Source: an uncultured Bacteroidota bacterium (GTDB taxonomy: Bacteria > CLD3 > SB21). From it: DNA of 64,000 nt. The translations under genes were made by a program, and so were the position numbers. Of the stretch, positions 4,554 to 35,380 are shown piece by piece (positions within the stretch are counted from its first letter, which is position 1; each line of letters opens with the position of its first letter). The DNA is taken from positions 15,480 to 79,479 of the forward strand of contig CAYZJB010000004.1 of NCBI GenBank assembly GCA_964478735.1. The letters are read 5' to 3'. The notes below the pieces were generated by a model. It was not told the DNA's origin, made no database searches, and saw only the letters and a program-made list of their open reading frames with translations.

Positions 4554-4557
4554 AGCG

Positions 4558-5654: not shown

Positions 5655-8594
5655 TTGGGAAATCATTTTTTGAACGCATTCATTTTTTTACGCTCCCTTT
5701 GTATTGCCGCTTCCCTTCAAGCGCAAAAATTTGTCCAGTTTACCGGATCGACGCCCATGACGCCGCATCGGATGATTCAAGACCGTGCCGGCTACATCTG
5801 GATGGCGTCCTATCGGGGTTTGAATCGATATGACGGCCATACGTTCAAAACGTTCGAACATGCCGTATATGATTCGACGTCCCTTTCCCACGAGATCGTC
5901 AATGATCTTCTGGAAGACAACGATGGACAACTGTGGATTGCGACCGAAGATGGCATTGACCGCTACGTTTCACGGACAGAATCTTTTGAACACATTCGTT
6001 TTCAAAACAGCAGCCTGAGGCCCAATAACGTTCGACGGTTATTTCAAACTCGGGACGGTCGTTACTGGGCGGCCACGCTTTTTTCGGTTTTTCAATTTGA
6101 TCCGCGAAAAGGTGCGGTGTCCCATTACCCGGGGTTTGATCGACTCGGCAAAGGAGTTGTTCGTCAATTTGTCGAATGGAATCGACACGTGTGGCTTCTG
6201 ACCATGCGAGGGCAATTGTATCGTCACGATCCCGTTTCAAAAAGTTTTCACCTTATCGATGTATCGGAAGATTGGATCGGGCGCATCGTGATCGATCTGG
6301 AAAATAATCTCTGGATCCTATCCTCCCGCACGGTCATCAAAATGAATCCGACCGGCATCGTATCGGCGCGTTATCAGGTCGATCATGCGTTACGCGACAG
6401 AGAAATTCTGGACGCCTTAATCGTCGACAATGGGATCTGGATAGGTACCGACGACGGCCTTTTCCATTTCGATACGTCGGGCGGGCACATACGATCGATA
6501 CAAGACTATATGGACAGGGATTATCTTGGCGGTCGTCGATCCATCGTATCGCTGTTGAGGGATCGCGAGGAAACCGTGTGGGCGTCGATACAGAGCAGCG
6601 GGCTTTACCGGTACAGTCCTTTCCGTCCGGATTTTCGCATCGTGCGCCATGATCCGGAGCGTCGTCGTTCACTCGGTTCCAATATGGTATTTCGAATTTA
6701 CGAAGACTCTGATTCGATTTTATGGATCGTAACCTCCGGCCGCGAGATCAATAAAATCGATACCGACGGCTCCATTACTCGAATCAAATCGAATGGCTTC
6801 GGAGTCCGGTCGTTTGCCGATGTGGGAGACGGGTCGCTCTGGATAGGCAAGTTGCGAGGATTGGAGCGAATTCACAGACTAACCGGAAAATCGATACGGC
6901 TGCAAAAAGAATTAGAAGTTTTTCAAGACGTTGCCGTCACCGAGATGCTGTCGTTGGATCAACAAAGCTGGCTATTTGGAACGTCCAGGGGTGTGGCGCA
7001 TGTGACCCGAACAAACGATGTCGTGAACGTCAAATGGTATCGTTCGAATTCGGACACGAACAGTCTTTCGTCCGACCTTATCTTTGCACTTTATCGCAGT
7101 CACCGCGGAGGGGCGTGGTTGGGAACGGAGGCCGGCCTCGACTATCTGGACTATCGTGCCGGCCGGGTGTTCAGGACCCATCAAGGGTCGGGTTTTCAAT
7201 CGGGGATGATGACCAGTTTGTGGGAAGATTCTCTCGGGCGTGTCTGGGTCGGAACATACGGTCATGGTTTGAAAGTTTATGATCCGTCCACCGGATCCTG
7301 GCGCAGTTATACCAAACGTGAAGGGCTGCCGAACGATCAGATTTACGGAATTCTTTCCGATGGCCGAGGCTGTTTGTGGTTAACGACGAACAACGGTCTG
7401 TGCCGTTTTTCCATCCATGACGAACAGATTCGCTGGTTTACTGAGGACGACGGGATTGCGGGAAATGAATTTAACGAAGGGGCGTGGTGCCGTCGACGAA
7501 ACGGTTCGATCGTGCTGGGTGGGCCCCGAGGCTTGACGTTATTCCATCCGGAACGAATCAAAACGAATCCCTATGTACCAGGAATTCAAATTGAAGGAAT
7601 GGAGATCAACGGCGCGTTTGTGCGTACCGGTTCTGATGAATGGAAGATGTCTTCGAGTGATAACTCATTTGAGATCATGTACACCGCGTTAAGTTTTCTG
7701 GTATCCAGCAAAAACCGTTTTCAATACCGGCTGCAAGGTTACGATGCCGGCTGGGTCGATGCCAAATACCGGCGCAGCGCTCCATACAGCAATGTTCCAC
7801 CGGGCCAATACACTTTTCAGGTCCGGGGGTCGAATAATGACGGCGTGTGGAATATGGCCGGTGCCAGCCTTCGGATAGCGGTTTTACCGGAAGTGTGGCA
7901 AACGTGGTGGTTCGTGGCACTGGTGTGCGTGGTCGTCGGAGCGTCGGTGTATGGCCTGGTCGCATTCCGAGTACGGCAACTCCTGGCGGTCGAGCGGCTT
8001 CGGACAACCATTGCCGCCGATCTTCATGATTCTGTCGGGAGCGGCCTGACCGATATTTCCATCCTTACGCAGTTGGTCGTCCAACAGCTTGACCAGCGCA
8101 CGCGGGGCCAGGTCGAGCAGCATCTCGTCAAAATTCACGAAACGACCGACGGCATAATCAAAAGTTTTGGCGACATCATCTGGATTGTCAATCCCAAACG
8201 GGACTCTCTCTCAGACCTTATCATCCGAACGAAGGATTTCTATCAGGACGTCTTGGCCCAGCTCGGTGTCCAGTTTACAACCAGCAATCTTAACGATTTA
8301 CAAAATCTGAAGCTAAAATTGGAGAAAAAGCAGCAATTGTACCTATTAATAAAGGAGGCCATCCATAATAGCTTGAAACACAGTCAATGTCATCAAATCC
8401 ATCTCGATGTCGCCGTGGATCGGACCGATTTCAAGATATCCATTACCGATGACGGACAGGGCTTCCGGTTAAACGGCGAGACGGGTAATGGTTTAAAAAA
8501 CATGCGGATGCGTGCCAGTCACTTGGGCGGTTCTCTTCTCATCCAGTCGTCACCCGGTGCGGGTACACGCGTCGAAATACAAGGAAAGGTATAA
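5655..8594 (+). CDS. sensor histidine kinase with periplasmic two-component-regulator propeller / Y_Y_Y domains, TM helix, HisKA_3 + HATPase_c
   Basis: signal peptide; repeated YxGxxxGLxxYDG / LWIGT propeller motifs; TM WWFVALVCVVVGASVYGLVAF; H-box ADLHDSVGSGLT; C-terminal ATPase G-boxes. Confidence 0.85.
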   Translation: MGNHFLNAFIFLRSLCIAASLQAQKFVQFTGSTPMTPHRMIQDRAGYIWMASYRGLNRYDGHTFKTFEHAVYDSTSLSHEIVNDLLEDNDGQLWIATEDGIDRYVSRTESFEHIRFQNSSLRPNNVRRLFQTRDGRYWAATLFSVFQFDPRKGAVSHYPGFDRLGKGVVRQFVEWNRHVWLLTMRGQLYRHDPVSKSFHLIDVSEDWIGRIVIDLENNLWILSSRTVIKMNPTGIVSARYQVDHALRDREILDALIVDNGIWIGTDDGLFHFDTSGGHIRSIQDYMDRDYLGGRRSIVSLLRDREETVWASIQSSGLYRYSPFRPDFRIVRHDPERRRSLGSNMVFRIYEDSDSILWIVTSGREINKIDTDGSITRIKSNGFGVRSFADVGDGSLWIGKLRGLERIHRLTGKSIRLQKELEVFQDVAVTEMLSLDQQSWLFGTSRGVAHVTRTNDVVNVKWYRSNSDTNSLSSDLIFALYRSHRGGAWLGTEAGLDYLDYRAGRVFRTHQGSGFQSGMMTSLWEDSLGRVWVGTYGHGLKVYDPSTGSWRSYTKREGLPNDQIYGILSDGRGCLWLTTNNGLCRFSIHDEQIRWFTEDDGIAGNEFNEGAWCRRRNGSIVLGGPRGLTLFHPERIKTNPYVPGIQIEGMEINGAFVRTGSDEWKMSSSDNSFEIMYTALSFLVSSKNRFQYRLQGYDAGWVDAKYRRSAPYSNVPPGQYTFQVRGSNNDGVWNMAGASLRIAVLPEVWQTWWFVALVCVVVGASVYGLVAFRVRQLLAVERLRTTIAADLHDSVGSGLTDISILTQLVVQQLDQRTRGQVEQHLVKIHETTDGIIKSFGDIIWIVNPKRDSLSDLIIRTKDFYQDVLAQLGVQFTTSNLNDLQNLKLKLEKKQQLYLLIKEAIHNSLKHSQCHQIHLDVAVDRTDFKISITDDGQGFRLNGETGNGLKNMRMRASHLGGSLLIQSSPGAGTRVEIQGKV

Positions 8595-8595: not shown

Positions 8596-9243
8596 ATGAG
8601 AAATGCGATTCGAACGATCGTCGTTGACGACAATGAGACCGTCAGAGAAGGCTTGGCGGCTTTGATCAACGGAACAGAAGGCTACCAGTGCGTGGCGCAG
8701 TACAGCAATTGCGAAAGTCTGCTCAACCAGATCGATCGGTACTGGGCGGACGTCATTCTGATGGATATCCGGCTGCCCGGAATCAGCGGTATCGAAGGGG
8801 CAAAACGGATCAAACAACGTTTTCCTCAGGCCAATATTCTGATGTTGACCGTGTATGAGGAAAACGACCTGATCTTCGATGCCGTTTGCGCCGGTGCGTC
8901 CGGCTATCTGCTCAAGCGAACGCCTCCGGCACGACTTCTGGAAGCCGTCCGGGAAGCGTACGAAGGCGGTTCACCGATGAACTCACAAATCGCGCGGCGT
9001 CTCTTGACCATGATTCAAGAAAAAAGCGCAAGGCCGGAAATCGAATCCGGGGAGTCGTTCAACGAGCGGGAAAAGAACATCCTTGTCCGACTCGCCCAGG
9101 GACAAACGTATGAAGAGATTGCACAGGAACTATTTATCAGCGCCAATACGGTCAAATATTACGTTCGTAAAATTTATCAGAAACTGCACGCTTCATCCAA
9201 ATCGGAAGCGATATCAAAAGCGATACGAGCTGGAATGATTTAG
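8596..9243 (+). CDS. response regulator, NarL/LuxR family (REC + HTH_LuxR)
   Basis: IVVDDNETVREGL...ILMDIRLPGISG receiver motifs; C-terminal LuxR HTH EREKNILVRLAQGQTYEEIAQELFISANTVKYYVRKIY; ATG 2 nt after kinase stop. Confidence 0.9.
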   Translation: MRNAIRTIVVDDNETVREGLAALINGTEGYQCVAQYSNCESLLNQIDRYWADVILMDIRLPGISGIEGAKRIKQRFPQANILMLTVYEENDLIFDAVCAGASGYLLKRTPPARLLEAVREAYEGGSPMNSQIARRLLTMIQEKSARPEIESGESFNEREKNILVRLAQGQTYEEIAQELFISANTVKYYVRKIYQKLHASSKSEAISKAIRAGMI

Positions 9244-9269
9244 TTCTAGCCGACATCTCCTGATTCAAA

Positions 9270-9294: not shown

Positions 9295-9601
9295 TTATTC
9301 GAAGCATCCAGCGGTTTTCAAAAGACTTAGAGTTCTCTGGACGGTCGAAAAATCTATCCATCGAGGTAAACTTTGACCCTTTTAAGGGAGTTCATAAGCG
9401 TCAGGACTACCCGGTCAGTTCATTGTTCAACGTAGCCACAGCGTCTACATTAACCGCGCGACACACATCATATCTCAACGATTCTGTTCGACATTGCTTT
9501 TTTCAGACCGTCCTGAAACGCAAAGTGAAAGGAGACTCGCCACGCCCATGCGACTAAATTTCCTTTTTTATCCACCGCATTCCTTAACCAAGGAGGACAG
9601 T

Positions 9602-12514
9602 ATGCGACATGTTACCAAACGCCTGCGAATGGCGCTGGTCATGGCCTGTTTTGTGCCGCAGTTGGTTCTGGCCGGCACGAACGGCAAAATAACCGGTCTT
9701 GTCAAAGACAAGGAAACCGGCGACGCCCTTCCGGGCGTGAACATCATTCTCGAAGGTACCACGATGGGCGCCGCGACGAATGCATCCGGAGAGTTTTTGA
9801 TCATCAATGTGCCGGCCGGTGTGTACACCGTGTCGACCAGCATGATCGGGTACTCGAAAGTGACGAAGCAAAATGTCCGCGTACTGCCGGACTTTACGAC
9901 GCGTTTGGACTTCGACTTGAGCGCGGCGGATCTGGGCGGCCAGGAAGTCGTCATCGTCGCGGAACGGCCCCTGATCCAGAAGGACCAAACGATGACCATG
10001 AGCGTCACGTCGTCCGATGAAATCAAAAATCTGCCGGTTCGCGGCTTCGCCAACGTGGCGACGCTGGGCGTTGGTATAACGATCGGCAACCTGAGATCGG
10101 TCGACGGCGGATTTGATAACATCAACGTCCGCGGCGGTCGTCCCAGTGAAACGGGCGTGATTGTTGACGGATTTTTGCAGAATAATCTATTGACGGGCGT
10201 TTCAACGGCTCAACTTCCCAGCGGTTCAGTCGAAGAACTGGTCGTCATCACCGGTGGATTCGATGCCGAGTTCGGACGCAATCAGTCCGGCATCATTCAA
10301 GTTACCTCCAAGGCGGGCGGACAGAGGTATTCGGGGTTTGCTGAATACGTCAATGATCGTCCGATGTTCGCTTTGAACAAAGACCATTATTTCGGATATG
10401 ACGTTTACAGCGCGGGTATCGGCGGTCCGTTGATCCCGGGAAATAATAACATACGGTTCTTCATTTCCGGCGAAGCCAAAGACATCACGGATGCCGATCC
10501 CAGTGTAACCGGATTCCCGGTCTATTCCCTGTCCGATGCAGGCACCCGTGGAGCCGCGGGAGAGTTGGACACGCTGATCTTCGAAACCACGTCGGATCCG
10601 ACCAAGGTCAAATTTGATAAAGGCGCTCGGCCAAAAAATTCCACCGGCTACGGCGTCAACAGTGATCGGGGCATCGCCCTGCAATCGAAACTGACTTACC
10701 AGGCGACTCCTTCACTGCGTTTTGACCTGAGCGGTAATTACACCAAAAACTGGCGGCGATTGTTTACTACGGATCAGACGGTCTCGTTGGATCTTGTCCA
10801 ACGCCGTCCACTGGAAAACATCAATGTTGGTATGATCGCGACGTACACACTGAACGAACGAAGTTTCTTTGACGTCGGCGCCAATTACTTCAAAAACAAG
10901 AGACGGATCTTGCATGACGTGTATGGATTCGATCCCAACACGTATATCGGGAAAGGAACGGGCACGACGGGATTCACGACCTATTACAATGACAATATCT
11001 TTAACGATATCGGATCCAGTGATCGAAACTTCCGCGAAGATCGCGACCAGTACTGGGCCGTGAAAGCGAATTACGTCAACCAGATTGACAAGCATAACCA
11101 GTTGAAAGCCGGTTTCGATTACTTCCGTCATGAAGTACGTTTCCTGAATATTCTTGATAACGACAATCCTTCCACGGGTTCGAACGACAATGTCGGATTC
11201 ATCGTCGATGAGAACAACAATCTGAAGGAAAACAATAAAGACGATCTGGATAATCGCCTGATCGGTCCGGCCAATCCGGTGTCGTTTGCTACGTACCTGC
11301 AGGATAAGTTGGAATACGAAGGATTGGTCGTTCGTGCAGGTTTAAGATATGATCTGTTCAATCCCGGGATCAAGCGGATCAAGAATCTGGCCGATCCTAC
11401 CGGACAAACGGATCCCGATCAAATTGGGGTTGTCGTGGGCGGCCGGAACCTTGCGGGATCTTTAGGTTCCGAGGATTATAAAGACGGCAAGACCCAGCAC
11501 AAGTTCAGTCCGCGATTCAGCGTGAGTTTCCCCGTTTCTGAGCGGACACAATTCCGAATGAGCTACGGCAAGTTCTTCCAGCAGCCCGATCTGCAGAACC
11601 TGTATGTCAGTCCGGACTTCCTAAGCCGGCAGTCGATTGCTCCTCCGTTTGCGACGGTGGTCGGCAATACCAATCTGGAGCCGGAACAAAGCACCCAGTA
11701 TGAAGTCGGCTTACGCCGTGCCATTTCCGATCATTTTGCCATCGATCTGAGCGCCTATTACAAGGACATCCAGGGTCTGACACAGGCCAACCTGGTCAAC
11801 TCGGTGCCCAATGCGTTGATCATGACGACCAACGACGACGAAGGTATTATTCAGGGCGTTACGATGGCGATGGATCTGCGGCGTGTCGGTAAGTTCCAGG
11901 GACGTGTGGCGTATACTCTCCAGTCCGCACGTGGAACCGGTTCCGGACAGGCGACGAATTTCCGTTCGGCCTGGCTCGGATTCCAGAGCGTCAAGCTTAG
12001 CGCACCGTTGAATTTCGATCAAACGCACACGATCAATGCGAATCTCGATATTCGGAATGCCAAAGGAGAAGGACCGGCGATCGGCGGATCTCGCCTTCTC
12101 GAAGAAGCGGGCTTGAACATACAGCTGAACACCGCGAGCGGCTTGCCGTATACGCCGTTTTCGATCGTTGCTTTCCAGACCCGAGGTGTTCCTCAGGGAC
12201 GGACGATAGGACGCCGGAACAGCCAGCGCCAGCCGTGGACGGTCCGTATCGATTTGAAAGCCGACAAGACCATCCATTTCAGCGAACGGTTCAATACGAA
12301 TATCTACGTTCAGGTGCTCAATGTGCTGAATCGCAAGAACGTGATCGCAGTTTATCCGTCTACCGGACGTGCGGATGACAATGGATTCCTGTCGACGGCT
12401 GCGGGTCAGGCACTGAGCGATCGTCAGAAACAGCAGTATGACGTCATCTACAATAACGGCTTGTTCTATGACACGCCGATGCAGGCGCGGCTTGGCGTCC
12501 TGTTTAATTTCTAA
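9602..12514 (+). CDS. TonB-dependent receptor with N-terminal carboxypeptidase-regulatory-like domain (Oar/SusC-type architecture)
   Basis: AAGGAGGA SD before ATG 9602; signal peptide; GxVxDxxTGxxLPGVNIIL...YSK CarbopepD_reg motif; plug region (NLPVRGF...NVRGG); long beta-barrel ending in aromatic (LFNF). Confidence 0.8.
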   Translation: MRHVTKRLRMALVMACFVPQLVLAGTNGKITGLVKDKETGDALPGVNIILEGTTMGAATNASGEFLIINVPAGVYTVSTSMIGYSKVTKQNVRVLPDFTTRLDFDLSAADLGGQEVVIVAERPLIQKDQTMTMSVTSSDEIKNLPVRGFANVATLGVGITIGNLRSVDGGFDNINVRGGRPSETGVIVDGFLQNNLLTGVSTAQLPSGSVEELVVITGGFDAEFGRNQSGIIQVTSKAGGQRYSGFAEYVNDRPMFALNKDHYFGYDVYSAGIGGPLIPGNNNIRFFISGEAKDITDADPSVTGFPVYSLSDAGTRGAAGELDTLIFETTSDPTKVKFDKGARPKNSTGYGVNSDRGIALQSKLTYQATPSLRFDLSGNYTKNWRRLFTTDQTVSLDLVQRRPLENINVGMIATYTLNERSFFDVGANYFKNKRRILHDVYGFDPNTYIGKGTGTTGFTTYYNDNIFNDIGSSDRNFREDRDQYWAVKANYVNQIDKHNQLKAGFDYFRHEVRFLNILDNDNPSTGSNDNVGFIVDENNNLKENNKDDLDNRLIGPANPVSFATYLQDKLEYEGLVVRAGLRYDLFNPGIKRIKNLADPTGQTDPDQIGVVVGGRNLAGSLGSEDYKDGKTQHKFSPRFSVSFPVSERTQFRMSYGKFFQQPDLQNLYVSPDFLSRQSIAPPFATVVGNTNLEPEQSTQYEVGLRRAISDHFAIDLSAYYKDIQGLTQANLVNSVPNALIMTTNDDEGIIQGVTMAMDLRRVGKFQGRVAYTLQSARGTGSGQATNFRSAWLGFQSVKLSAPLNFDQTHTINANLDIRNAKGEGPAIGGSRLLEEAGLNIQLNTASGLPYTPFSIVAFQTRGVPQGRTIGRRNSQRQPWTVRIDLKADKTIHFSERFNTNIYVQVLNVLNRKNVIAVYPSTGRADDNGFLSTAAGQALSDRQKQQYDVIYNNGLFYDTPMQARLGVLFNF

Positions 12515-12544
12515 TCGTACGGATCAATACTGGAGAATTTTGAC

Positions 12545-15500
12545 ATGAATAAAATCAAAAATACGCTGATCGTGGGCGCCCTTATCGGTGCTCTCGTATT
12601 CGCGTTCAGTGACTGGTCGACGGCGCGTGTAGACAAAAATACACGTCTCCGTGCCAAACTTCGCAAGGCGGACATCGTCGACATTGTCAATGTCGGGTAC
12701 AACAACTGGAATTACATCATGCGTAACCAGGGGTCCTATTTTTACGATGCTCCGAACGGAAACCCCGGGGGTGAATTCCCCCGGGGCTCCGGCAATACCA
12801 TCGTGTTTGCCGCCGGTGTGTATGTCGGAACGTTGAAAGACGGTGTACCCGTGGTCAGCGAAACGGAATTTGCTACCGAATTTCAACCTGGCCGTATTTC
12901 AAATTCCGATGTGCCTTTTGACGAATTGGAAGCCGAAGATCCGACTCGTGCCGATTTGCAAGTCTACCTGATCGATCGGTCTGCGTCCGGTTCGGATTAT
13001 GCCAACTGGCCGAGTGATGCGCCCAAAAATAGTTTGGGTCAACCTGCTCTAATTGCCGATGCCCAGACGTGGGCGGTATTCAACGATCTGGACATAACGC
13101 TGAGTCAGGAAGGGACGAGCATCAGTCCCGATCCGGGTTTGGGTCTGGAAATCGTTTTGGAATCCTTTGCTTTCAATGCCGGACCTCTGAGCAATGTTGT
13201 CTATTGTAAGTTTACGATCAAGAACGAGACGAATACCGATTATTCGGATTCGTATCTGGGTATGTGGATGGACGCCGATGTCGATGCGAATAATTCTACA
13301 AATGATATCGTCGGTATCGATACGGTACGGGGTTTGGGTTTTGTCTATAATTCGGACAATTCAGATTTTCCGGGTGCTGCCGGGTTTGACTTCTTACAGG
13401 GCCCGGTCGTCGATACGACCACCGTTGCTTCCAGTCTGGTTAACAAGTTCCGAAACAACAAAGTGACGCTGGTTTATGATCCTGCAGAGAACCGGTATAT
13501 TCCGACGACGTTGCCGGGGAATCAGATCTGGCTTGGCGCGACGGCTTTCAATACGTATGCAAATGGTACCGATCCGCAGAATAACGAAGAGCGGTACAAC
13601 CTGCTGGCCGGGCGTTTTACCGATGGAAATCCCAAAACCGGTACCGGCGCCTGCGACTATTACGCGTTTCGCGGCGATCCGATTACCCAACAGGGGAGTC
13701 CGGACGTCGGAGCCCCTCCGGGATCCGATCAGCGAATTTTGCACTGCGTCGGACCTTTTGTGATCGATGCCGGGTCGTCGCAGGAGGTATGGGTTGGAGT
13801 TGTCGGAGCGCAAGGAACGGATCGCCTGGATGCCATTCGGGTACTGCGCAATACGGATGATCAAGCTCAAATTACATTCGAAGCGGGTTTAATCGCGCCA
13901 GCTCCTCCCAATGTACCACAGATCAATGTTACAGGACTGGATGGCGCCGTGGCCATCACTTGGCAGAACAATGCGGAATATTCCGAAGATATCGCAGGTG
14001 AGATTCTGGAAATTGACCAGGCGCATGGCTATACCGCCGATTACAGAAAAAACGATTTCCAGGGATATCGTGTTTGGAAAAGCCGGACTGGAATTGTAGG
14101 CAGCTACACGGTACTTGCGGAATTCGATCTGGCGGATGGGATCACAACAGTGATCAATCAGGTCATCAATACGGCTGGAAATTTGGAGATTCGTGAAGAG
14201 CGTCTGGGAGATGACGTGGGTCTTCGCTATTCCTTCATTGATAACGATGTGGTGAACGGACAGGCCTACTTTTACTCCGTTACGGCTTATGATGCCCAAC
14301 CTTATATCGCGGGTCCCGGCGTATTCAGTCTTGGAACGACACAGACATTGATAAAGGGCGAAGCGACCGGTATCATTCTTTCCGATACCGAGCCGGTTGC
14401 GATTTGGGATCAAGGGGATATCTATCTTGACTCACTCGCGATGGTGAGCGATGCCACTTATGGTTCAAACGGTGGAACGCTTATCGGTGATACCGTTTAT
14501 GTTGAAGTCGATACACATACCGTCGGTAGCACGCCTCAACTGGCCATCCACGCCTTTGTTGCCACATCGGTCGAGCGAGAAGAGTTCAATTTCGATTTCA
14601 ACAGTCTTGCACCGGCATTCCGTGTGGAGGGAATCGAATCGCCGGATGACGTGTCGCTCGGGGATGGAGTTTCGACAAATGTGACATTCGGTTTCAGCGA
14701 CGGGCATGACGAAGCCAATATCTTCCGGCTTAAGGTCGTGGATATACAACAATACGATGGCTCGATTCCTGCACCTTCAGGACTTCCGATTTCGTTGGAA
14801 ACATCGCCGACGGCCAATGTAGTGTCCGTCATACCGATGAGTGCTCTGATTGGTCAGAATTTTGACGCCTCGGTGTCTGATGTTGTCCATACCGGGCCCA
14901 GCGACGGAGCGATAACAGTGGAAATTATCGATCCGACAAAAGTTCGAAGTGTAGACTACTCGCTGAGCTTTTTCACTATTCCGACGGACTGTACGGGGGC
15001 CCCGCTCCGGGGTGATGACTTCCTTCCGGCCAATGGAATTGCATATCGTATTCAGGTTGGTTCCAGCATTCTTACTCTCGACTCTCGTACGGACGATCCG
15101 AGAACCTATTATGATGTCAATGGAAACGATACGTTCAACGTTGGAATCGATGTTCGTCTCGATGACTCTAAGTTTGGAGTCGATCAGGCGGTTGTTGGCA
15201 TAACCGCTACTGAACAACCGGTCATCGTCGATGGAATGAAAATTACGGTTTTTGGACCCTCCAATGACGTGAAATTCTTCCAACTCATTGCAACGGCGGC
15301 AGGTACGCTGGCCGTTCCCGATATGGCTGCGTTCGCTTTCAATGGAAGCGGGTTCCCAACGATTGACGGTGGTGCGGCCGGAAATGATTATACGGCTCTT
15401 GGTGCGGGTGCTTTGAATGATCGACCCAACGTTCCGAATCTATTGACCACTGTAGCAGCCGCATCTGCCGCCAACGGTGGCAAATGGGGATTCCAAACGG

Positions 15501-16519
15501 GCGAAGTTGGTGGAGGGTTTACTTTCACCTTTTTTAAGAGCCGTGTTTTCAGAAACGATAACTTCAATCGGTTCGTTCCATCTGATTTTGAGATGCGATT
15601 TACGGCAGCGGGTGGACAAGGAGACTGGATATTTGACGGACTGGGGCAAGCTGCTGTTCCATTTGAACTGTGGAACATCGGTGTGAATACCCCAAATGAT
15701 CCATCCGATGATTATCGGATGTATCCTCGCGTTCTGAATTCAACCGTTGTACCTTCGGCGGTTTATGATATCAGTACCATCGATCACACGATTTCAGGTG
15801 GTGACAACGATCCCGAAATGGATTGGGTGTATTGGATGAACCCCGATGATCGCTCGCCCGGTCAGACCGGTTATAATGCTTCCGTTGCAGCCAACGGCGA
15901 GGCCTTACAGGCACCCAATGGTGAGGTCATGGCGCGGACCACTTTGATCAATTTCAATGGCGGCAGCGTCTCGGATGGATCATTCCCAGCAAATGTCAAT
16001 CAGGTTATTCCGGCAACGGGAACGGTATTCCGTATTATCAGTACGAAACCGAATACCGTGTTCGATTCTTATGCTTTCTCGGGAACGGCGAGGACAACGT
16101 CAGCGTCTAAAGCCCAGATGAAGGCATCTCTGAAAGACATCCGTGCCGTTCCGAATCCCTACTACGGTCAGTCGTTGTATCAGACGCAGGGACTCTTCGG
16201 CAAAGTGTTGAAGTTCACGCATCTGCCGGGTAGCTGTACCATCAAGATCTTCAACGTTGCAGGTGACCTGGTGACGACACTGGTGCATAACGCGTCGTCG
16301 ACGAATGGACGGTTGAATACCAACCCGCTCGATATCAATGCGACGGCGGCTCCAAAGGAAACCTCGGAAGAGTGGTGGGATTTGACGAATGCCGACGGCA
16401 AGTTCGTCGCGAGCGGCATGTATATCGCATTGATCGACGTTCCCGGCGTGGGTAAGAAAACGGTGAAGTTTGCCGTGATTCAGGAAGCGAACATCACCAA
16501 CGGACCGGAAATTCGATAA
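12545..16519 (+). CDS. very large secreted protein (1324 aa) with T9SS-type C-terminal sorting domain; catalytic domain not recognised
   Basis: signal peptide; C-terminal ~90 aa VPNPYYGQSLYQT...KIFNVAGDLVTTLV...SGMYIALIDVPGVGKKTVKFAVI resembles T9SS CTD; GGAG SD. Confidence 0.7.
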   Translation: MNKIKNTLIVGALIGALVFAFSDWSTARVDKNTRLRAKLRKADIVDIVNVGYNNWNYIMRNQGSYFYDAPNGNPGGEFPRGSGNTIVFAAGVYVGTLKDGVPVVSETEFATEFQPGRISNSDVPFDELEAEDPTRADLQVYLIDRSASGSDYANWPSDAPKNSLGQPALIADAQTWAVFNDLDITLSQEGTSISPDPGLGLEIVLESFAFNAGPLSNVVYCKFTIKNETNTDYSDSYLGMWMDADVDANNSTNDIVGIDTVRGLGFVYNSDNSDFPGAAGFDFLQGPVVDTTTVASSLVNKFRNNKVTLVYDPAENRYIPTTLPGNQIWLGATAFNTYANGTDPQNNEERYNLLAGRFTDGNPKTGTGACDYYAFRGDPITQQGSPDVGAPPGSDQRILHCVGPFVIDAGSSQEVWVGVVGAQGTDRLDAIRVLRNTDDQAQITFEAGLIAPAPPNVPQINVTGLDGAVAITWQNNAEYSEDIAGEILEIDQAHGYTADYRKNDFQGYRVWKSRTGIVGSYTVLAEFDLADGITTVINQVINTAGNLEIREERLGDDVGLRYSFIDNDVVNGQAYFYSVTAYDAQPYIAGPGVFSLGTTQTLIKGEATGIILSDTEPVAIWDQGDIYLDSLAMVSDATYGSNGGTLIGDTVYVEVDTHTVGSTPQLAIHAFVATSVEREEFNFDFNSLAPAFRVEGIESPDDVSLGDGVSTNVTFGFSDGHDEANIFRLKVVDIQQYDGSIPAPSGLPISLETSPTANVVSVIPMSALIGQNFDASVSDVVHTGPSDGAITVEIIDPTKVRSVDYSLSFFTIPTDCTGAPLRGDDFLPANGIAYRIQVGSSILTLDSRTDDPRTYYDVNGNDTFNVGIDVRLDDSKFGVDQAVVGITATEQPVIVDGMKITVFGPSNDVKFFQLIATAAGTLAVPDMAAFAFNGSGFPTIDGGAAGNDYTALGAGALNDRPNVPNLLTTVAAASAANGGKWGFQTGEVGGGFTFTFFKSRVFRNDNFNRFVPSDFEMRFTAAGGQGDWIFDGLGQAAVPFELWNIGVNTPNDPSDDYRMYPRVLNSTVVPSAVYDISTIDHTISGGDNDPEMDWVYWMNPDDRSPGQTGYNASVAANGEALQAPNGEVMARTTLINFNGGSVSDGSFPANVNQVIPATGTVFRIISTKPNTVFDSYAFSGTARTTSASKAQMKASLKDIRAVPNPYYGQSLYQTQGLFGKVLKFTHLPGSCTIKIFNVAGDLVTTLVHNASSTNGRLNTNPLDINATAAPKETSEEWWDLTNADGKFVASGMYIALIDVPGVGKKTVKFAVIQEANITNGPEIR

Positions 16520-16575
16520 CGAAGAACTCGGCGGGGACGTCATGAGGCGTTCCCGTCAAACTGGAGAATTGTCAC

Positions 16576-17616
16576 ATGAATAAAATATCCAAAGTGCTCG
16601 TTGGGCTAGCCATGCTGGCAGCGAGCGTAAGCGCCGGAGAGGAAAAGCGAGGTGAAGCGGGATTTGCTTTCCTACGGGTTCCCATCGGCGCCCGTGAAAC
16701 CGCCCTCGGTACGACCGGATTGACGCATGCGTCCGGAGCCAATGCATTGTACTGGAATCCGGCAAATGCGGCGGGTCTGGATCGTCCGTCGGTATCGGTG
16801 TCTTATTTGAATCACTTTGCCGGAATCAGTTCGAATTACTTTGCGGCCACGGTTCCGATGAGCGACGTCGGGACGTTCGGTTTCAGCCTTAACTATCTCA
16901 GCTATGGCGATATCGAACGTACGACAGAGGCCAGTCCGGATGGTAATCTCGGTTCGTACTCTCCGTTTGAGATTGCGGTCGGCTTCAGCTACGCCAAACA
17001 GATTACCGATCGTGTCAGCGGCGGTTTGACCGTGAAGTTCGTCTCGTCCAAGATCGATGCGGTCCAGGCGTCGGGTGTGGCGTTCGATTTCGGCTTCAGT
17101 TACAACACCGGTTTCCGCGGTTTGAAGCTCGGTTTTGTCGCGAGCAACATCGGTCCACAGGCGAAATATGACGGCGACGGTTTGTTGCGTCAGGTCAGTT
17201 TGCCCAATCCAAACGCGACCGGTGCGGGATCTCAAGGATTCCTTCAGTTCGAGTCGGAACCGTTCGAACTCCCGGCCTCGGTCAATTTCGGCGCAACGAT
17301 GGATCTGTACCGGAACGAACAGAATTCCGTTTCGGGTATTCTCGAGCAAAACATCAACAGTTTTGCCGTCAGCCGGACCAATCTGGGCCTGGAATACGGA
17401 TTCAAGAACATGTTCTTCGCCCGCGGCGGTTACACCAGCGCGTTGAAGCGTGACCGCGACTACAGGACGGGGAAGGCGTCGATGGCGGGATTAACCCTGG
17501 GCGCCGGGGTCGATTACAAATTCAATGATGCCTTCGGTGTGACCATCGATTACGGTTGGATGGATCTCGGTGAACTGAACGCGACGCACCGGTTCACGAT
17601 CGGTGTGAAGTTCTGA
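16576..17616 (+). CDS. PorV/PorQ-family-like outer membrane beta-barrel (T9SS cargo shuttle-like)
   Basis: signal peptide; N-terminal GARETALGTTG...ALYWNPANAAGL resembles GARAxAMGGA...WNPAGLA motif of PorV/FadL-like family; alternating beta-strand pattern; C-terminal F. Confidence 0.55.
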   Translation: MNKISKVLVGLAMLAASVSAGEEKRGEAGFAFLRVPIGARETALGTTGLTHASGANALYWNPANAAGLDRPSVSVSYLNHFAGISSNYFAATVPMSDVGTFGFSLNYLSYGDIERTTEASPDGNLGSYSPFEIAVGFSYAKQITDRVSGGLTVKFVSSKIDAVQASGVAFDFGFSYNTGFRGLKLGFVASNIGPQAKYDGDGLLRQVSLPNPNATGAGSQGFLQFESEPFELPASVNFGATMDLYRNEQNSVSGILEQNINSFAVSRTNLGLEYGFKNMFFARGGYTSALKRDRDYRTGKASMAGLTLGAGVDYKFNDAFGVTIDYGWMDLGELNATHRFTIGVKF

Positions 17617-17637: not shown

Positions 17638-17674
17638 AAGGCCGCCCGTGCGCTCTGCAGGGCGGCCTTTTTTA
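17638..17674 (+). terminator. rho-independent terminator
   Basis: AAGGCCGCCC-gtgcgctctgca-GGGCGGCCTT + TTTTTA after porV-like gene. Confidence 0.7.
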
Positions 17675-17854: not shown

Positions 17855-20800
17855 TTGTATAATTTTGCCATGATCATATTGCTATATATCCGCCATCTGG
17901 TCGTTTTGATGCTCTTTGTGTCAGTGATTTACGGGCAAACGATCACGGTGACAAGTTCCGCCGACAGCGGCCCGGGTACCCTGCGGGACGCCATTCAGCT
18001 GGCCAATGGAAGCCTGACGGTCGATACCATTCGATTTGATACGCTCTCGATGGGTTCAGCGGTTATTTCAATCACTACGGCCCTTCCGATACTGACGGAC
18101 GATTCGATTGTGATTGCGGGTCCGGTTTGGCCTGGCGGTGAACCGGCCGTCACGATTGACGGTGGCGCGCTGACGTCAGGAGAAAATACGATCACGATTT
18201 CAGGTTCGTTCTGTGAGGTTCAGTCCCTGACGCTGATCAACAATCAATCGACGGGTGCGGCGGTTGAAATCACGGGCGGCGTTTCCAATCGTGTGACGGG
18301 AAACACCATCGGACTCGACCGGATCGGACAGAATGCAATGCCCAATAGTGTCGGAGTCCTGATCACCGGAGGACAAGCCCACCGGATCGGCGATTCGTCG
18401 GCCGCCGGAGGGAATATTATTTCCGGTAACCTCGAGGACGGCATCCGGATCGTAGCGTCCCACGACAACGTCGTTTTGAACAATCGGATTGGCGTCAACC
18501 GTTTCGGAACTGCGGCCGGAAACGCCTCTTCAGGGATCCTGATCAATAGCGGCTCAAAGGCAACGCGGATCGGTAGCGGCACGCCATCCGGTCGAAATAT
18601 CATTGGCGGAAACCTTACGGGTATCCGGATTGCCGATAATGGTTCCGATTCTACAGCAATCGACGGTAATTGGATTGGCGTTCATTTTTCTTCATCTGTC
18701 GCAAACGGTACGGGGATCCGCATTGAAAACGGCGCCTCATCGACCCGGATCGGCCAATGGGGAAATGTCACGCCGAATACCATTTCCGGTAATACGGGAG
18801 ATGGAATTTCAATCGTTGGAAGTCTGACGCGCGGAACCACGATTCGAGGCAATCGCATCGGAACGGATACGACAGGCTCAACGGGGATCGGAAACGCCGG
18901 ATCGGGTATTTTCATCCAGGATGCGCGCCGGTCGACGATCGGGGGAGTCGCTGTCGGCGAATCCAACGTGATCTCGGGTAACGGATTCGACGGTATCCTT
19001 TTGGACGGGACGGATTCGACATTTGTCTACGGCAATCGGATCGGTGTGGATGGGTCCGGCATGCTGGCAATTCCCAATATGAACAACGGGATCGAGCTTC
19101 AGTCGGCTGCCCGCAATACCACGATTGGCGGGCGTTCAGCGGGACAGGGGAATGTCATTTCCGGAAATGACGCCATCGGCATTCTGATCGTTGACGAAGG
19201 GACGTCGCGAGCATCGATCGTTGGAAATCTCATCGGGGTTGCGCTCGACAGTGTCGGCGACGTCGGTAACGGCGAGTCCGGCGTACATTTGAGTTTTGGC
19301 GCGTCCCGCGACTCGGTGAATTACAACCTGATCGCTTACAACGGAGTGGGCATTGCGTATGAAGACGCAACCACCGACAGCAACGTTCACTTTGCCAATT
19401 CCATTTTCCGTAACGGACAGGGAATCGATATTGCTTTAAATGCACAGGGCGATATTATTCCGCCCGCCATTGCCTACGTATCGCTGGATACGACCGTTCA
19501 TGGTACGGCCGATCCGTTTGCCTTCGTACAGATTTATGCCGATTCCGTGGATCAGGGGCGATTTTTCCTCGATACGGCGCGAGCCGATGCCGCGGGTAAC
19601 TGGTCTCGAAAAGTTCAATTGCCGGGTGGAGCTCGAGTCCTGGCCATACAGGAAGCCGGCATGAGTTCCTCGGAATTTTCAACGCCGTTTGAGCCCTTCA
19701 TTGGTCCGGTGGGAGTTTCACTTCCGACGCTCTCGTTTGGAAACGTGTTCCTCGGTCAGACCGACACACAGTCGGTCCGAATATTTTCACTTTCGGGCGA
19801 CGTGATTTTGACCGATCAGTTTCTGAGCAGCCTCGGAGAGTTTACCGTACTGACGACTTTTGCTTTCCCGGAAACACTCGCCGTCGGCGACACGCTGACC
19901 ATCGAGATTGCCTTTACACCGGCAGATTTCGGGACACGTAACAGCAGTTGGCATATCCTCAACAATTCATCGATTCCTGTGTTTGGATTGCCATTGACGG
20001 GTTACGGTCAGGCCGGCAGTCTGATCGCAATGGATACGGTCGTTTTTCCCGAAACCATCGTCGGCGATTCTTCCTCGGTGACGATCAGCGTCAAAGCTGA
20101 AGATGCTCCGGTACAATTGACCGAAGCCGTGACACAAACTCCCGTATTCAGCATCGTGTCTCAGCCGACTCTGCCGTTTACCCTTCTAAACGGTGTGGTC
20201 GACTCGGTCTTATTCGAGATAAAATACCGCCCGTCTTTAAGTACGCTGCAGGGCGATACCTTGATCATCCAGAGCAATTCACCGGCCGGCGACCGGTACG
20301 TCCTTTTGCAAGGGCACGGTTTGCCCAACCAATCGCCCGGTTCGTTTCCATTGCTCCCTCTCCCGGGCGGTTCGACAACCAACAATCGGCGCCCAACGTT
20401 TTTATGGCGTCGCTCCGTAGATGCCGACGGCGATACCGTGATCTATACGCTTCAAATCAGTACGACGGCAAACTTTGCCTCGATCACACAAAGCGTGCAA
20501 ACGCCGGATACGGTTGTTGTTCTTCCGCTCCCACTGGATACGCTGCAGAGCTACTACTGGCGCGTTTTCGCGCGCGACGATAAAAACGGCGAAACCGTGA
20601 GCAATGTCGGTTTCTTTACGGTCGATGCCGTGGCACCGCGAGGATCGTTGAGGATCCTGCCCAGCCCGATATTGCAAACGTCCGCGGCGATATACGTTTA
20701 TTCCAGCGAACCTCTGGAAAGTGCATCGACGAGGATCAGGTTTTGGGACGTCGAACAACAACTTCTCGACAGTATCAATGTTCAATTGACGGAAATCCAA

Positions 20801-21565
20801 CCGTCGCTGTTCCAAACGTCTTATTCGGTATCGGAATCCGGTACACTGGAAATTGCGGCGACGTTGGAGGACTCTGCTGGAAATCAGACCGTACCGTCGA
20901 GAGTTTTTACCTTTGCGCTGCTGCCAAAGACCCGTGTGCTGGTCAGTCATGACCGGCGTGTGACTACGTCCTTGTCGCGGAGCCGAGGCATTTTGTGGTT
21001 GGGTGTCGAACCGGCGGAGAGGGCGGCCTTACCGATTTCCACGACTTATGCGATCGACGTGGGCGGGACGGTCGAGTCGGGTAATCCTCTTGAACTTTCG
21101 ATCGATTATTCGACGCTGGACGTCGGTGCGCTGGGTTGGACAGACGATTCAAAAATCGGGATTTATCGAATGGAATCCGGAACGCCGGTATACATCGGTG
21201 GGGCCGGCAGAGCCGGGCGTATCGCTTCTCAAATCGATCGCCTCGGACGATACGTGCTGGGCTATGATCCAAACCGACAAAGTTTGCCCCGTGAATTGCA
21301 TCTCGACAATTATCCCAATCCCTTCAATCCGATAACCTCGATACGGGTTGCGTTGCCGTTTTCATCGGACGTCCGCGTCGAGATATACAATCTTATCGGC
21401 CAACGGGTTAAAACGCTATATCGTGGCTTTCTTCCGGCCGGCCGCCATACCATGACGTGGAATGGTACCAGCGAAACAAGTAATCGTGTAGCCACGGGCG
21501 TTTATTTGTGCCGCGTTTCATTTGCCGGTCAGGTGACAACGAGAAAAATGCTGCTCGTCAAATAG
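17855..21565 (+). CDS. large secreted right-handed parallel beta-helix repeat protein (1236 aa) with T9SS C-terminal sorting domain
   Basis: signal peptide; >15 repeats of GNxIGxN / ISGNxxDGI beta-helix type; C-terminus NYPNPFNPITSIRVALP...VEIYNLIGQRVKTL...GVYLCRV canonical T9SS type-A CTD. Confidence 0.8.
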   Translation: MYNFAMIILLYIRHLVVLMLFVSVIYGQTITVTSSADSGPGTLRDAIQLANGSLTVDTIRFDTLSMGSAVISITTALPILTDDSIVIAGPVWPGGEPAVTIDGGALTSGENTITISGSFCEVQSLTLINNQSTGAAVEITGGVSNRVTGNTIGLDRIGQNAMPNSVGVLITGGQAHRIGDSSAAGGNIISGNLEDGIRIVASHDNVVLNNRIGVNRFGTAAGNASSGILINSGSKATRIGSGTPSGRNIIGGNLTGIRIADNGSDSTAIDGNWIGVHFSSSVANGTGIRIENGASSTRIGQWGNVTPNTISGNTGDGISIVGSLTRGTTIRGNRIGTDTTGSTGIGNAGSGIFIQDARRSTIGGVAVGESNVISGNGFDGILLDGTDSTFVYGNRIGVDGSGMLAIPNMNNGIELQSAARNTTIGGRSAGQGNVISGNDAIGILIVDEGTSRASIVGNLIGVALDSVGDVGNGESGVHLSFGASRDSVNYNLIAYNGVGIAYEDATTDSNVHFANSIFRNGQGIDIALNAQGDIIPPAIAYVSLDTTVHGTADPFAFVQIYADSVDQGRFFLDTARADAAGNWSRKVQLPGGARVLAIQEAGMSSSEFSTPFEPFIGPVGVSLPTLSFGNVFLGQTDTQSVRIFSLSGDVILTDQFLSSLGEFTVLTTFAFPETLAVGDTLTIEIAFTPADFGTRNSSWHILNNSSIPVFGLPLTGYGQAGSLIAMDTVVFPETIVGDSSSVTISVKAEDAPVQLTEAVTQTPVFSIVSQPTLPFTLLNGVVDSVLFEIKYRPSLSTLQGDTLIIQSNSPAGDRYVLLQGHGLPNQSPGSFPLLPLPGGSTTNNRRPTFLWRRSVDADGDTVIYTLQISTTANFASITQSVQTPDTVVVLPLPLDTLQSYYWRVFARDDKNGETVSNVGFFTVDAVAPRGSLRILPSPILQTSAAIYVYSSEPLESASTRIRFWDVEQQLLDSINVQLTEIQPSLFQTSYSVSESGTLEIAATLEDSAGNQTVPSRVFTFALLPKTRVLVSHDRRVTTSLSRSRGILWLGVEPAERAALPISTTYAIDVGGTVESGNPLELSIDYSTLDVGALGWTDDSKIGIYRMESGTPVYIGGAGRAGRIASQIDRLGRYVLGYDPNRQSLPRELHLDNYPNPFNPITSIRVALPFSSDVRVEIYNLIGQRVKTLYRGFLPAGRHTMTWNGTSETSNRVATGVYLCRVSFAGQVTTRKMLLVK

Positions 21566-34060: not shown

Positions 34061-35380
34061 ATGAAACTCCGAAAAGCCGTGTTGGGTTTGGTGGTTGCCG
34101 TGTCCTCCGTCGTGGCTCAAAAAGGCGCCGGCGGTCCGTTTTTTTTTCTCGATGCGGCCAATTTTGCCTCGCGCGACACCAACCTCGGCAGGATCGAAGT
34201 GTTCGTCAAAGTCGCCCATTCCGAGCTCGTGTTTTCCCGGTTTCAGACGGATTTTTTTCGGGCCCAGTACGAACTGACGTTTCAGATCTTCGATAAGGAA
34301 AAAAATCTCGTCAAACGCGACATTCAGGACCGGGAAATTCGTTTGTCGACGTATCAGGAAACGACGTCCGATGTGAAATTTCACTTCAGCCGTCTGACGA
34401 CCGACCTGGCGCCGGGCGACTACACGCTGATCGTTAACCTGACGGACCGGGAAACGCAAAAATCCGGCCAGCGTCAACTGGAAATTCCGGTCCGCGGATT
34501 TCGCGACCGCCCCGTCGGCATCAGTGATCTTATTTTCGCCGATCGTATTCAGAAAGACACACTCCTCGACATCGTGAATATTGTACCCAACGTATTCAAG
34601 AGTTTTGACAACGAGTACAAAAATTACGCGGTGTATTTTGAAATTTACAATGAACGGCTGGCGTACAAGTATCGCGACGAACAAGGAAAGATTCCGAAAG
34701 ACACGGACGACGTTAAAATTCATTATCGCGTGCTGGATAAAAATCAAAAACTCGTAATGGAAGACAGCCTTGAGAAAAAGGTATGGCAATTTCAAACGTT
34801 CAGTTCGGTCGAGATCAACAAAGGGGCATTGAGCTTTGGGAAGTACATCCTTGACGTGACCGTCCAGAAAGGTCCACACCGGGCGTCGACAAAATCGATC
34901 TTTGACGTGCGATTGTCCGCTTTTACTGCACCCTCACTTGCCGTGCAGACGTTCGATCTGGATCAGGCGATCAAACAAATGCGTCACATCGCGCGAAACG
35001 AAAACCTGTCCAAGATCCTGAAAAAACCCCAGTCGGAGAAACAGGAATTCTTCAAAGCGTTCTGGAAGCAGCGGGATCCATCGCCGGAAACCGAACGCAA
35101 CGAGTTGATGGAGGAATACTACCGCCGGATCGATTATGCCAACCGCTATTTTACGTCGGGTTTTCGTGAAGGCTGGGATACCGACCGCGGCATGGTTTAC
35201 ATCATCCTGAGTGCTCCCGACGATATTGAGCGTCATCCTTACGAGGCGAATTCCCAGCCGTACGAGATCTGGTATTTTTACAGCGCCAATCTGAAACTGG
35301 TCTTTGTCGATTTCAACGCCGTTGGCGACTACGAATTGTACAACCGTCTCGATTTTGAGAACTATATCGCCCTGCGCTAA
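34061..35380 (+). CDS. GWxTD-domain secreted protein
   Basis: signal peptide; C-terminal ...FWKQRDP...YYRRIDYANRYF...GWDTDRGMVYIILSAPDDIERHP...YEIWYFY. Confidence 0.7.
   Translation: MKLRKAVLGLVVAVSSVVAQKGAGGPFFFLDAANFASRDTNLGRIEVFVKVAHSELVFSRFQTDFFRAQYELTFQIFDKEKNLVKRDIQDREIRLSTYQETTSDVKFHFSRLTTDLAPGDYTLIVNLTDRETQKSGQRQLEIPVRGFRDRPVGISDLIFADRIQKDTLLDIVNIVPNVFKSFDNEYKNYAVYFEIYNERLAYKYRDEQGKIPKDTDDVKIHYRVLDKNQKLVMEDSLEKKVWQFQTFSSVEINKGALSFGKYILDVTVQKGPHRASTKSIFDVRLSAFTAPSLAVQTFDLDQAIKQMRHIARNENLSKILKKPQSEKQEFFKAFWKQRDPSPETERNELMEEYYRRIDYANRYFTSGFREGWDTDRGMVYIILSAPDDIERHPYEANSQPYEIWYFYSANLKLVFVDFNAVGDYELYNRLDFENYIALR

Follow-up and report, generated by a model that had tools for sequence, protein, structure and literature searches.

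A conserved gene module of a TonB-dependent transporter, a secreted protein with a type IX-like C-terminal domain and a PorV/PorQ-family barrel in the Fibrobacterota-Chlorobiota-Bacteroidota group

Type IX secretion system (T9SS) cargo that bears a type-A C-terminal domain (CTD) is collected by the barrel protein PorV (PMC10202324, PMC11285876, PMC10994853). PorU, PorZ and PorA keep their CTDs, that of PorU being held on PorV and that of PorZ on PorQ (PMC10202324). In turn, genes of type-B cargo cluster with those of cognate PorP/SprF barrels, which are the probable anchors of this cargo (PMC10202324, PMC10994853). Here we describe a trio of genes located in a 64-kb stretch of contig CAYZJB010000004.1 from an uncultured CLD3 bacterium (hereafter the window; 64,000 nucleotides), which encode a TonB-dependent transporter, a large secreted protein with a T9SS-type CTD (GeneB, product of geneB) and a PorV/PorQ-family outer-membrane β-barrel. 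The trio is an undescribed, widespread module, composed of a cognate PorV-like anchoring pair and a TonB-dependent transporter with a surface partner. In the literature searched, we found neither a description of a receptor/CTD-protein/barrel module nor a paper linking PorV, TonB-dependent and Ignavibacteria. An earlier first-pass annotation of this DNA had proposed a dedicated receptor-cargo-shuttle module and considered it unusual; such a module exists, but it is not rare, being spread over phyla of the Fibrobacterota-Chlorobiota-Bacteroidota (FCB) group, with about 3,300 representatives of the N-terminal domain of GeneB. Our preferred reading, which we hold tentatively and would not yet call probable, is that the trio is an outer-membrane nutrient-capture unit, in which T9SS-exported GeneB sits on the PorQ-like barrel and feeds the transporter.

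Related loci were retrieved by scanning one genome per GTDB species with conserved peptides of the geneB family, which gave 77 distinct loci (the closest species representative in that scan shows 65% identity), and synteny was established with phmmer, the three proteins of the window serving as queries against every open reading frame (ORF) of these loci. We found that in 39 of the 61 evaluable members of the family geneB has the transporter gene directly upstream and the barrel gene directly downstream on the same strand, which bears out the conservation of the trio as a unit in relatives. The carriers belong to at least seven FCB lineages: CLD3-type metagenome-assembled genomes (MAGs; labelled 'bacterium' or 'Bacteroidota'), Ignavibacteria (MAGs of Ignavibacterium album and Melioribacter roseus and the complete genome of Ca. 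Tepidiaquacella), Ca. Kryptonium, Neomarinimicrobiota, Gemmatimonadota, KSB1 and Caldithrix. The exceptions to the trio order are mostly frameshifted genes or tandem arrays of two to five geneB paralogs in CLD3-type MAGs. The arrays of L004 (9989-22668), L009 (4934-20287) and L016 (3440-12731) comprise three to five paralogs of about 750 to about 1200 residues, which have no transporter gene, no barrel gene and no C-terminal tail of the kind described below. Two or more trios per genome, or tandem trios, are found in L064, L019/L028 and L008/L023; in L064, a MAG labelled Cytophagia, two full trios follow one another (925-8378 and 8778-15808) and both geneB copies are tailless. As the peptides used for retrieval come from CLD3-type sequences, the copy numbers given for distant lineages may be too low. 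As the pairwise distances of the three proteins correlate across 38 trios (0.75-0.80, a value reached in 0 of 999 permutations), the sequences are consistent with inheritance of the trio as a unit.

The three genes are co-directional with short spacers, as the first-pass annotation had stated; the spacers measure 30 and 56 nt (Table 1). A Shine-Dalgarno sequence precedes the transporter gene and GGAG motifs are also seen 5' of geneB and of the barrel gene, which supports the view of a Shine-Dalgarno-using genome. The strong terminator claimed right after the third gene is likewise present: 3' of the barrel gene an 8-bp GC stem, GGCCGCCC (17640-17647) / GGGCGGCC (17660-17667), is followed by TTTTTT. 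On the other side of the trio, at 9270-9296, the regulator genes are closed by another hairpin with a T-run. Since the promoter/terminator scan was not enriched over shuffles, both terminators rest on direct reading of the letters. Given the hairpins on both sides and the short spacers, the region 9602-17616 reads as one transcription unit. The sensor histidine kinase and LuxR-type regulator genes located upstream are candidates by their adjacency and probably control expression of the operon; the same kinase gene stands upstream of the trio in two syntenic relatives, L087 and L088. In Bacteroides, hybrid two-component systems of this sensor type sense oligosaccharides. In L087, three to four small genes (5162-6440, corresponding to 9243-9602 of the window), encoding 3-dmu-9_3-mt, DUF1801 and glyoxalase-like proteins, separate the transporter gene from that of the response regulator, and this relative has an additional kinase/regulator pair upstream.

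Table 1. Features of the trio and its surroundings, in window coordinates.
Feature	Position	Strand	Description and basis
Sensor histidine kinase	5655..8594	+	Periplasmic Reg_prop beta-propeller/Y_Y_Y sensor, HisKA_3, HATPase_c (Pfam)
LuxR/NarL-type response regulator	8596..9243	+	Response_reg and GerE (Pfam); 215 aa as called in relatives
Shine-Dalgarno AAGGAGG	9590..9596	+	5 nt 5' of the transporter ATG; direct sequence reading
Transporter gene	9602..12514	+	970 aa; Pfam and ORF reading
TonB-box-like QEVVIVAERP	9941..9970 (res 114-123)	+	Between N-terminal extension and plug
geneB	12545..16519	+	1324 aa; predicted secreted multidomain surface protein
GeneB N-domain	12626..13894 (res 28-450)	+	Galactose-mutarotase-like beta-supersandwich; confident model
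GeneB FN3-like domain	13907..14314 (res 455-590)	+	Secondary structure of the model; weak PDB Fn3 match of the family profile
GeneB variable middle	14315..16114 (res 591-1190)	+	Beta-sandwich domains
GeneB divergent type-A-like T9SS CTD	16136..16483 (res 1198-1313)	+	Two insertions relative to canonical CTDs
GeneB post-CTD tail EANITNGPEIR	16484..16516	+	11 residues
Barrel gene	16576..17616	+	346 aa; PorV/PorQ-family outer-membrane beta-barrel
Intrinsic terminator	17640..17673	+	Direct reading; partly detected by program scan
gene4, parallel beta-helix protein	17871..21565	+	About 1231 aa; NosD/para_beta_helix, choice-of-anchor D
Second GWxTD paralog	34061..35380	+	Pfam; TIGR04514
GWxTD-domain protein	43628..45028	-	466 aa; Pfam; TIGR04514

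A PorV/PorQ-like nature of the last gene had been set as a test by the first-pass annotation, and the assignment holds: the protein matches the PorV/PorQ-family model NF033709 with 199.7 bits (cutoff 90) over profile positions 2-326 of 326, and Flavobacterium johnsoniae PorV (6h3i_F) with an E-value of 3.8e-12. It has a signal peptide and ends in ...GVKF. PorQ is its closest equivalog (NF033711, 140.8 bits, E 5e-41), yet below the cutoff of 220; the PorV equivalog model (NF033710) gives 89.2 bits against a cutoff of 250, and the PorP/SprF model (TIGR03519) 21.9 bits against 90.55. The 42 barrels tested from other trios are all matched by these four models; the 43 trio barrels counted in other loci match the family model at E <= 1e-5 throughout, and their best PorQ E-value (1.5e-42) is no stronger than the below-cutoff match of the window barrel. 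Because the latter misses both equivalog cutoffs and the others behave alike, the trio barrels appear, judging by these profiles, to form their own branch of the PorV/PorQ family. As for the shuttling of cargo by PorV-family proteins, to which the first-pass annotation had referred, the role of a fixed cognate anchor, by analogy with the PorZ-PorQ pair, is more likely for this barrel than that of a general shuttle.

A candidate link between GeneB and this barrel lies in the C-terminal part of GeneB. The T9SS-type CTD predicted in the first pass does not emerge when the single sequence is compared with PF18962, but it does at the level of the family: hhalign of 66 C-termini of the geneB family against 44 canonical type-A CTDs gives a probability of 97.4% and E 1e-11, and in remote members of the family (P0059-P0061, P0065, P0071) this position is occupied by a canonical Por_Secre_tail. 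The best PDB matches of the CTD model are the CTDs of PorZ, PorU, mirolase, RemA, RemZ and NucA, and those of PorZ and PorU, which are retained, are the closest in fold. Relative to canonical CTDs, there are insertions of about 10 residues after the NPxY motif and of about 18 residues before the W-D-L motif. TIGR04183 is absent among the NCBIfam matches of GeneB at E<=0.01, and the type-B model CHU_C scores E 0.08. Judging by homology and by the predicted Ig-like beta-sandwich fold, the C-terminus of GeneB is a T9SS type-A CTD at family level. In barrel-linked members the last CTD strand is followed by 8-11 extra residues. We found this tail in 42 of the 46 family members with a PorV/Q gene next to geneB, compared to 2 of the 31 without one (Fisher p 1e-14, computed without phylogenetic correction). 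In CLD3-type MAGs it follows the pattern ...KFAVIQ-EEIxINGPDVR, and the array copies without a barrel gene end at KFAVIQ; the contrast is also seen inside one MAG (L006 vs L009). Outside CLD3-type MAGs the tails read ...QERINF, ...PEQRIDVY, ...PQKQIQxY or ...GTEELGVF and end with F or Y. The pattern makes the tail a candidate for the element by which GeneB would dock on its barrel.

The remainder of GeneB was mapped by BLAST against 75 homologs and by two AlphaFold models, of which that of the C-terminal half is of moderate confidence except for residues 769-929 and the CTD. GeneB matches no curated family, and the first-pass annotation had likewise been unable to place its presumed enzymatic domain in one: it has no Pfam match, either at full length or as three fragments; its sole NCBIfam match (E<=0.01) is a weak one to the PorZ C-terminus; and sequence searches of the PDB with the single protein and the family profile give only the PorZ CTD (E 0.005) and a weak Fn3. 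The family of its N-domain is large: of the 1.84 billion 50%-cluster representatives searched, 3,289 match at E<=1e-3 and 326 still do so at E<=1e-30. This domain is modelled as a galactose-mutarotase-like beta-supersandwich, an accessory fold typical of carbohydrate-active enzymes. The invariant residues of the family alignment are glycines, one proline and an acidic cluster in WMDADVD...NDIVGID (D243 and D254, with D245 and D259 almost invariant), which, by its sequence, looks like a metal site. The enzymatic domain implied by the first-pass annotation was not found; neither the AlphaFold models nor the domain searches revealed an (alpha/alpha)6 or other catalytic domain, and the structure prediction suggested there as a check yielded the beta-supersandwich and FN3/Ig-like domains instead of a catalytic fold. 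Given the lack of a catalytic domain and the nature of the invariant residues, we treat the N-domain as a putative binding module rather than an enzyme; a GH174 match leaves a small possibility of a catalytic role. The FN3-like domain that follows is conserved in every family member, and residues 591-738 of the variable middle occur only in the closest full-length relatives. Taken as modelled, GeneB has the appearance of a protein for binding or display. A signal peptide is present but a lipobox is not, and a lipobox-like string occurs in only 3 of the 72 family members; anchoring as a lipoprotein was rejected on account of the missing lipobox. A PorU-like sortase (NF033707, peptidase C25) was rejected as well, since there is no C25 match and the aligned family shows neither an invariant Cys nor an invariant His, and so was PorZ itself (NF052228, 18.8 bits against a cutoff of 260, in the CTD only, with a supersandwich and not a propeller as N-domain).

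The first gene encodes, as had been proposed, a TonB-dependent receptor of 970 residues with a CarboxypepD_reg N-domain, an assignment confirmed by Pfam: CarbopepD_reg_2 (E 1e-18) and PF13620 (63.5 bits) for the N-domain, Plug (E 5e-9; PF07715 37.1 bits, cutoff 23.9) and TonB_dep_Rec_b-barrel (E 8e-22; PF00593 79.1 bits, cutoff 27). A signal peptide is followed by a CarboxypepD_reg-like N-terminal extension (residues 30-118), a plug (127-230) and the barrel, the plug-then-barrel order expected of TonB-dependent transporters, and the C-terminus, ...VLFNF, ends with the expected aromatic residue. Between extension and plug stands a TonB-box-like motif, whose consensus ExVxVxAERPLI is kept across 34 orthologs (alignment A5) and which qualifies as a TonB box at the motif level. 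The profile of these orthologs finds CirA (1e-25), PhuR, PfeA/FepA and XusA in the PDB, the match to the Bacteroides xenosiderophore transporter XusA (9gbc, E 5.6e-19) spanning extension, plug and barrel. Of the Oar/SusC architecture announced in the first pass, the succession of CarboxypepD_reg, plug and barrel stands. Membership in SusC/RagA was rejected (TIGR04056, 49.5 bits against a cutoff of 368.25, with only the N-terminal 190 residues aligned), and the only barrel model matched at E<=0.01 is the generic PF00593, with no Oar-specific model among the matches. There is no SusD-family lipoprotein gene beside the transporter gene, and the downstream GeneB has no SusD or other Pfam match and no lipobox. 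The first-pass annotation had considered an analogue of polysaccharide utilization loci outside Bacteroidetes. The relatives are non-Bacteroidia MAGs of FCB lineages, but with no SusD gene and a SusC score below threshold the trio is not such a locus by definition.

The products of the trio differ markedly in their divergence among close relatives. We compared the window proteins with those of four syntenic relatives (L087-L090) and found amino acid identities of 100% for the response regulator (L087, L088, L090), 99% for MoxR, 98% for FadB and 96.5-98% for the barrel. The transporter shares 89-92% and the neighbouring CTD cargo encoded by gene4 64-86%, while GeneB retains 76-78% in its N-domain and as little as 35-53% in its C-terminal half. 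GeneB thus diverges fastest, then the gene4 product and the transporter, far above the barrel and the cytoplasmic neighbours, which fits surface exposure. GeneB residues 591-738 are missing from these relatives, and at the DNA level, compared for L087, window positions 14007-16137 have no match and the flanks are 92-96% identical. Proteins that are exposed at the surface and subject to diversifying selection or to the exchange of cassettes show such a pattern.

Among the neighbours, gene4 encodes a beta-helix protein with a canonical type-A CTD (TIGR04183, 37.3 bits), and as this score exceeds the curated cutoff of 23, the organism is predicted to make ordinary T9SS cargo. In other loci, too, the trio often has canonical type-A cargo genes as neighbours, and their content varies (BNR-like, FG-GAP/RGL11-like, DUF4394, beta-helix). 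The window also encodes two GWxTD paralogs. In about 30 loci of Ignavibacteria, Kryptonia and Chlorobiota (e.g., L083, L084) the next gene downstream of the barrel gene is an ortholog of the one at 43628-45028 (phmmer E 1e-53), so that the module is four genes long there; in the window this protein is a possible, unlinked fourth partner. No paper mentioning GWxTD was found in the literature searched. In L083 a 1615-residue protein with Peptidase_C25, CARDB and CTD, related to PorU, is encoded two genes upstream of the trio (1267-6114); it scores 375 bits with the 'PorU2' model NF052324 (cutoff 450) and 260 bits with PorU (cutoff 420), and was seen in this one locus only. Elsewhere in the window, tandem genes for AbgT-family transporters are located at 53476-55008 and 55019-56539 (each PF03806 at about E 1e-195), and an ORF at 31498-32529, overlapped by an antisense ORF (31456-32187), has no Pfam match at E<=1e-5 and a UshA-like (seleno)protein match in NCBIfam (130 bits, cutoff 275).

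In the nutrient-capture unit that we tentatively propose, GeneB would reach the periplasm via Sec, having a signal peptide and no lipobox, and would cross the outer membrane through the T9SS of the host by means of its divergent type-A-like CTD. The CTD would remain uncleaved, and CTD and tail would dock on the neighbouring barrel, as PorZ does on PorQ and PorU on PorV. The displayed supersandwich, FN3 and variable Ig-like domains might then bind a polymeric, probably glycan, substrate at the surface, which itself or as fragments would be handed to the adjacent transporter and imported with TonB energy, the upstream Reg_prop/Y_Y_Y kinase and LuxR-type regulator setting expression. Overall, this would be a pair of the SusC/SusD, XusA/XusB or BtuB/BtuG type, with the lipoprotein anchor swapped for T9SS export and a PorQ-like anchor. 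Export and docking of GeneB make the simplest model because its CTD is PorZ/PorU-like, its tail tracks the barrel, a lipid anchor is missing and the neighbour is of the PorQ kind. In turn, a role in substrate capture is suggested by the linkage to a transporter, the carbohydrate-enzyme-type fold, the sensor and regulator, and the secreted neighbours.

Several observations weigh against this proposal. As to the putative glycan ligand, the supersandwich fold is also known from non-glycan contexts, e.g., the P1 domain of YidC. The CTD fails the curated single-sequence threshold (PF18962, 13.8 bits, E 0.075 for the last 154 residues, cutoff 27), and none of the T9SS core genes (gldK/L/M/N = porK/L/M/N, sprA/sov) lies within the 64-kb window. 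The tail/barrel association is uncorrected for phylogeny, and the peptide patterns used for retrieval derive from CLD3-type sequences, so that the sampling is biased. In Ignavibacteria, moreover, the module is apparently single-copy, its neighbours are housekeeping genes and not a regulator or a CAZyme, and an uncharacterised GWxTD protein is encoded after it; a context of this kind would suit core machinery of the envelope better than a locus for the uptake of a particular substrate.

The latter context leads to the first alternative, namely that the trio belongs to the T9SS sorting and attachment machinery of non-Bacteroidia FCB bacteria, with GeneB and the barrel as counterparts of PorZ and PorQ. 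GeneB would then retain its CTD, bind a glycolipid and present it to a PorU-like sortase, and the transporter would take the role of PG0534. We consider this unlikely, albeit worth serious attention. The nearest structural relatives of the GeneB CTD (PorZ and PorU), the sole NCBIfam match (the PorZ C-terminus) and the affinity of the barrel to PorQ all speak for it, and a carbohydrate-binding-type fold would suit glycolipid binding. PG0534, a TonB-dependent-receptor-like barrel, is needed for T9SS function (PMC5445135), and besides the seemingly single-copy Ignavibacteria cluster in its housekeeping surroundings there is the PorU-related C25 protein upstream of the L083 trio (NF052324, 375 bits). 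Yet, this PorU-like neighbour was seen in a single locus only, GeneB has no beta-propellers and scores 18.8 instead of 260 bits with the PorZ model, and the window operon lies behind a dedicated two-component system. Genomes with several or tandem trios occur (L064; L019/L028; L008/L023), and a GeneB that is hypervariable among near-identical genomes, with its middle exchanged, would be odd for core machinery.

The same hypervariability could indicate that GeneB serves as a variable surface layer, an adhesin or a phage decoy, anchored on a PorQ-like barrel of its own, and that the co-transcribed transporter is unrelated or coupled only loosely; we regard this as rather improbable. In its favour are the size of GeneB, its all-beta multidomain build and its fast evolution, with middle domains that can be exchanged. 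The arrays of four to five paralogs in CLD3-type MAGs (L004, L009, L016) are reminiscent of variable surface-protein repertoires, and S-layer proteins and adhesins are among the known exports of the T9SS (PMC10202324). However, the array copies are exactly those without a barrel gene and without a tail, and the order transporter-geneB-barrel is strictly kept across phyla and accompanied by co-divergence of the proteins, which argues for a functional tie to the transporter.

Finally, the first-pass annotation had pointed to Oar-family receptors, which are implicated in export rather than import. In this case, the transporter would itself carry GeneB or other CTD proteins through the outer membrane and hand them on to the PorV-like barrel, in a T9SS-independent or ancestral manner. 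Oar, a TonB-dependent transporter, is needed for secretion of the PopC protease (PMC6434023); the CarboxypepD_reg N-domain is common to the transporter and to Myxococcus Oar, the three genes are co-inherited, and the 64-kb window contains no T9SS core gene. Against this stand the absence of an Oar-specific model among the transporter matches, the array paralogs that carry the same CTD without an adjacent transporter, and the homology of the CTD to the signal that docks on SprA-PorV translocons. Ordinary type-A cargo is encoded beside the trio, and Ignavibacteriota, Gemmatimonadetes and related phyla are reported to have genes of the T9SS (PMC11285876); together with the CTD homology, this makes a conventional T9SS the simpler route, and we find export by the transporter quite improbable. 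A self-contained, TonB-energised secretion-and-anchoring device, formed by the trio (with GWxTD in some lineages) as an alternative or ancestor to SprA-based type IX secretion in non-Bacteroidia FCB bacteria, with translocation by the Oar-like barrel and transfer to the PorV-like one, seems to us more improbable still.

If the nutrient-capture reading is correct, then much of the FCB group, with Ignavibacteria, Neomarinimicrobiota, Gemmatimonadota, Kryptonia, CLD3 and other lineages that abound in sediments, oceans, soils and reactors, would place a capture protein next to its transporter via the T9SS and a PorQ-like anchor, and not as a lipoprotein in the manner of Bacteroidia. The principle of the cognate PorV-like barrel would be widened from two machinery proteins and type-B adhesins to nutrient uptake, the short C-terminal tail would become a candidate anchoring code, and a protein family thousands strong, which has no Pfam or NCBIfam model, would gain a testable role. 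Should the trio instead serve T9SS assembly or export, the module would inform on the working or the origin of the T9SS outside Bacteroidota. The existence of cultured carriers (Melioribacter roseus, Ignavibacterium album) makes the question directly testable.

Among described systems, the PorZ-PorQ and PorU-PorV pairs of Porphyromonas gingivalis come closest to geneB and its barrel, as they consist of a CTD-keeping secreted protein held on a PorV/PorQ-family barrel (PMC10202324), and the GeneB CTD model is nearest to the PorZ and PorU CTDs and the window barrel to PorQ. They differ in that GeneB possesses neither the beta-propellers of PorZ nor the C25 peptidase domain of PorU, its CTD has two insertions and an extra tail, and the barrel falls below both the PorQ and the PorV equivalog cutoffs. 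Moreover, geneB and the barrel gene are adjacent and, as read here, co-transcribed with a TonB-dependent transporter gene, in a lineage outside Bacteroidia. Similar to the SprB-SprF type-B systems of Flavobacterium johnsoniae, a cargo gene is clustered with its own PorV-like barrel gene (PMC10202324, PMC10994853); in contrast to them, the CTD derives from type A and not from type B/CHU_C, and the barrel represents the PorV/PorQ and not the PorP/SprF family.

With SusC/SusD, XusA/XusB and BtuB/BtuG the trio shares a transporter with an N-terminal extension beside a putatively surface-exposed binding protein, as well as an adjacent sensor-regulator pair. Yet, the partner here is no lipoprotein, is neither SusD- nor propeller-like and has about 1,100-1,300 residues with a T9SS CTD; the SusC threshold is not reached and the third (barrel) gene is obligatory here. 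Oar/PopC of Myxococcus xanthus resembles the trio in linking a CarboxypepD_reg TonB-dependent barrel to a secreted protein (PMC6434023), but no Oar-specific match was obtained, the partner has a T9SS-type CTD and a PorV-like barrel, and export via the transporter is not needed to account for the data. P. gingivalis PG0534 is, by description only, a similar TonB-receptor-like outer-membrane barrel functionally tied to the T9SS (PMC5445135); unlike the transporter gene of the trio, it is not described in that paper as clustered with genes for a CTD protein or a PorQ-like barrel.

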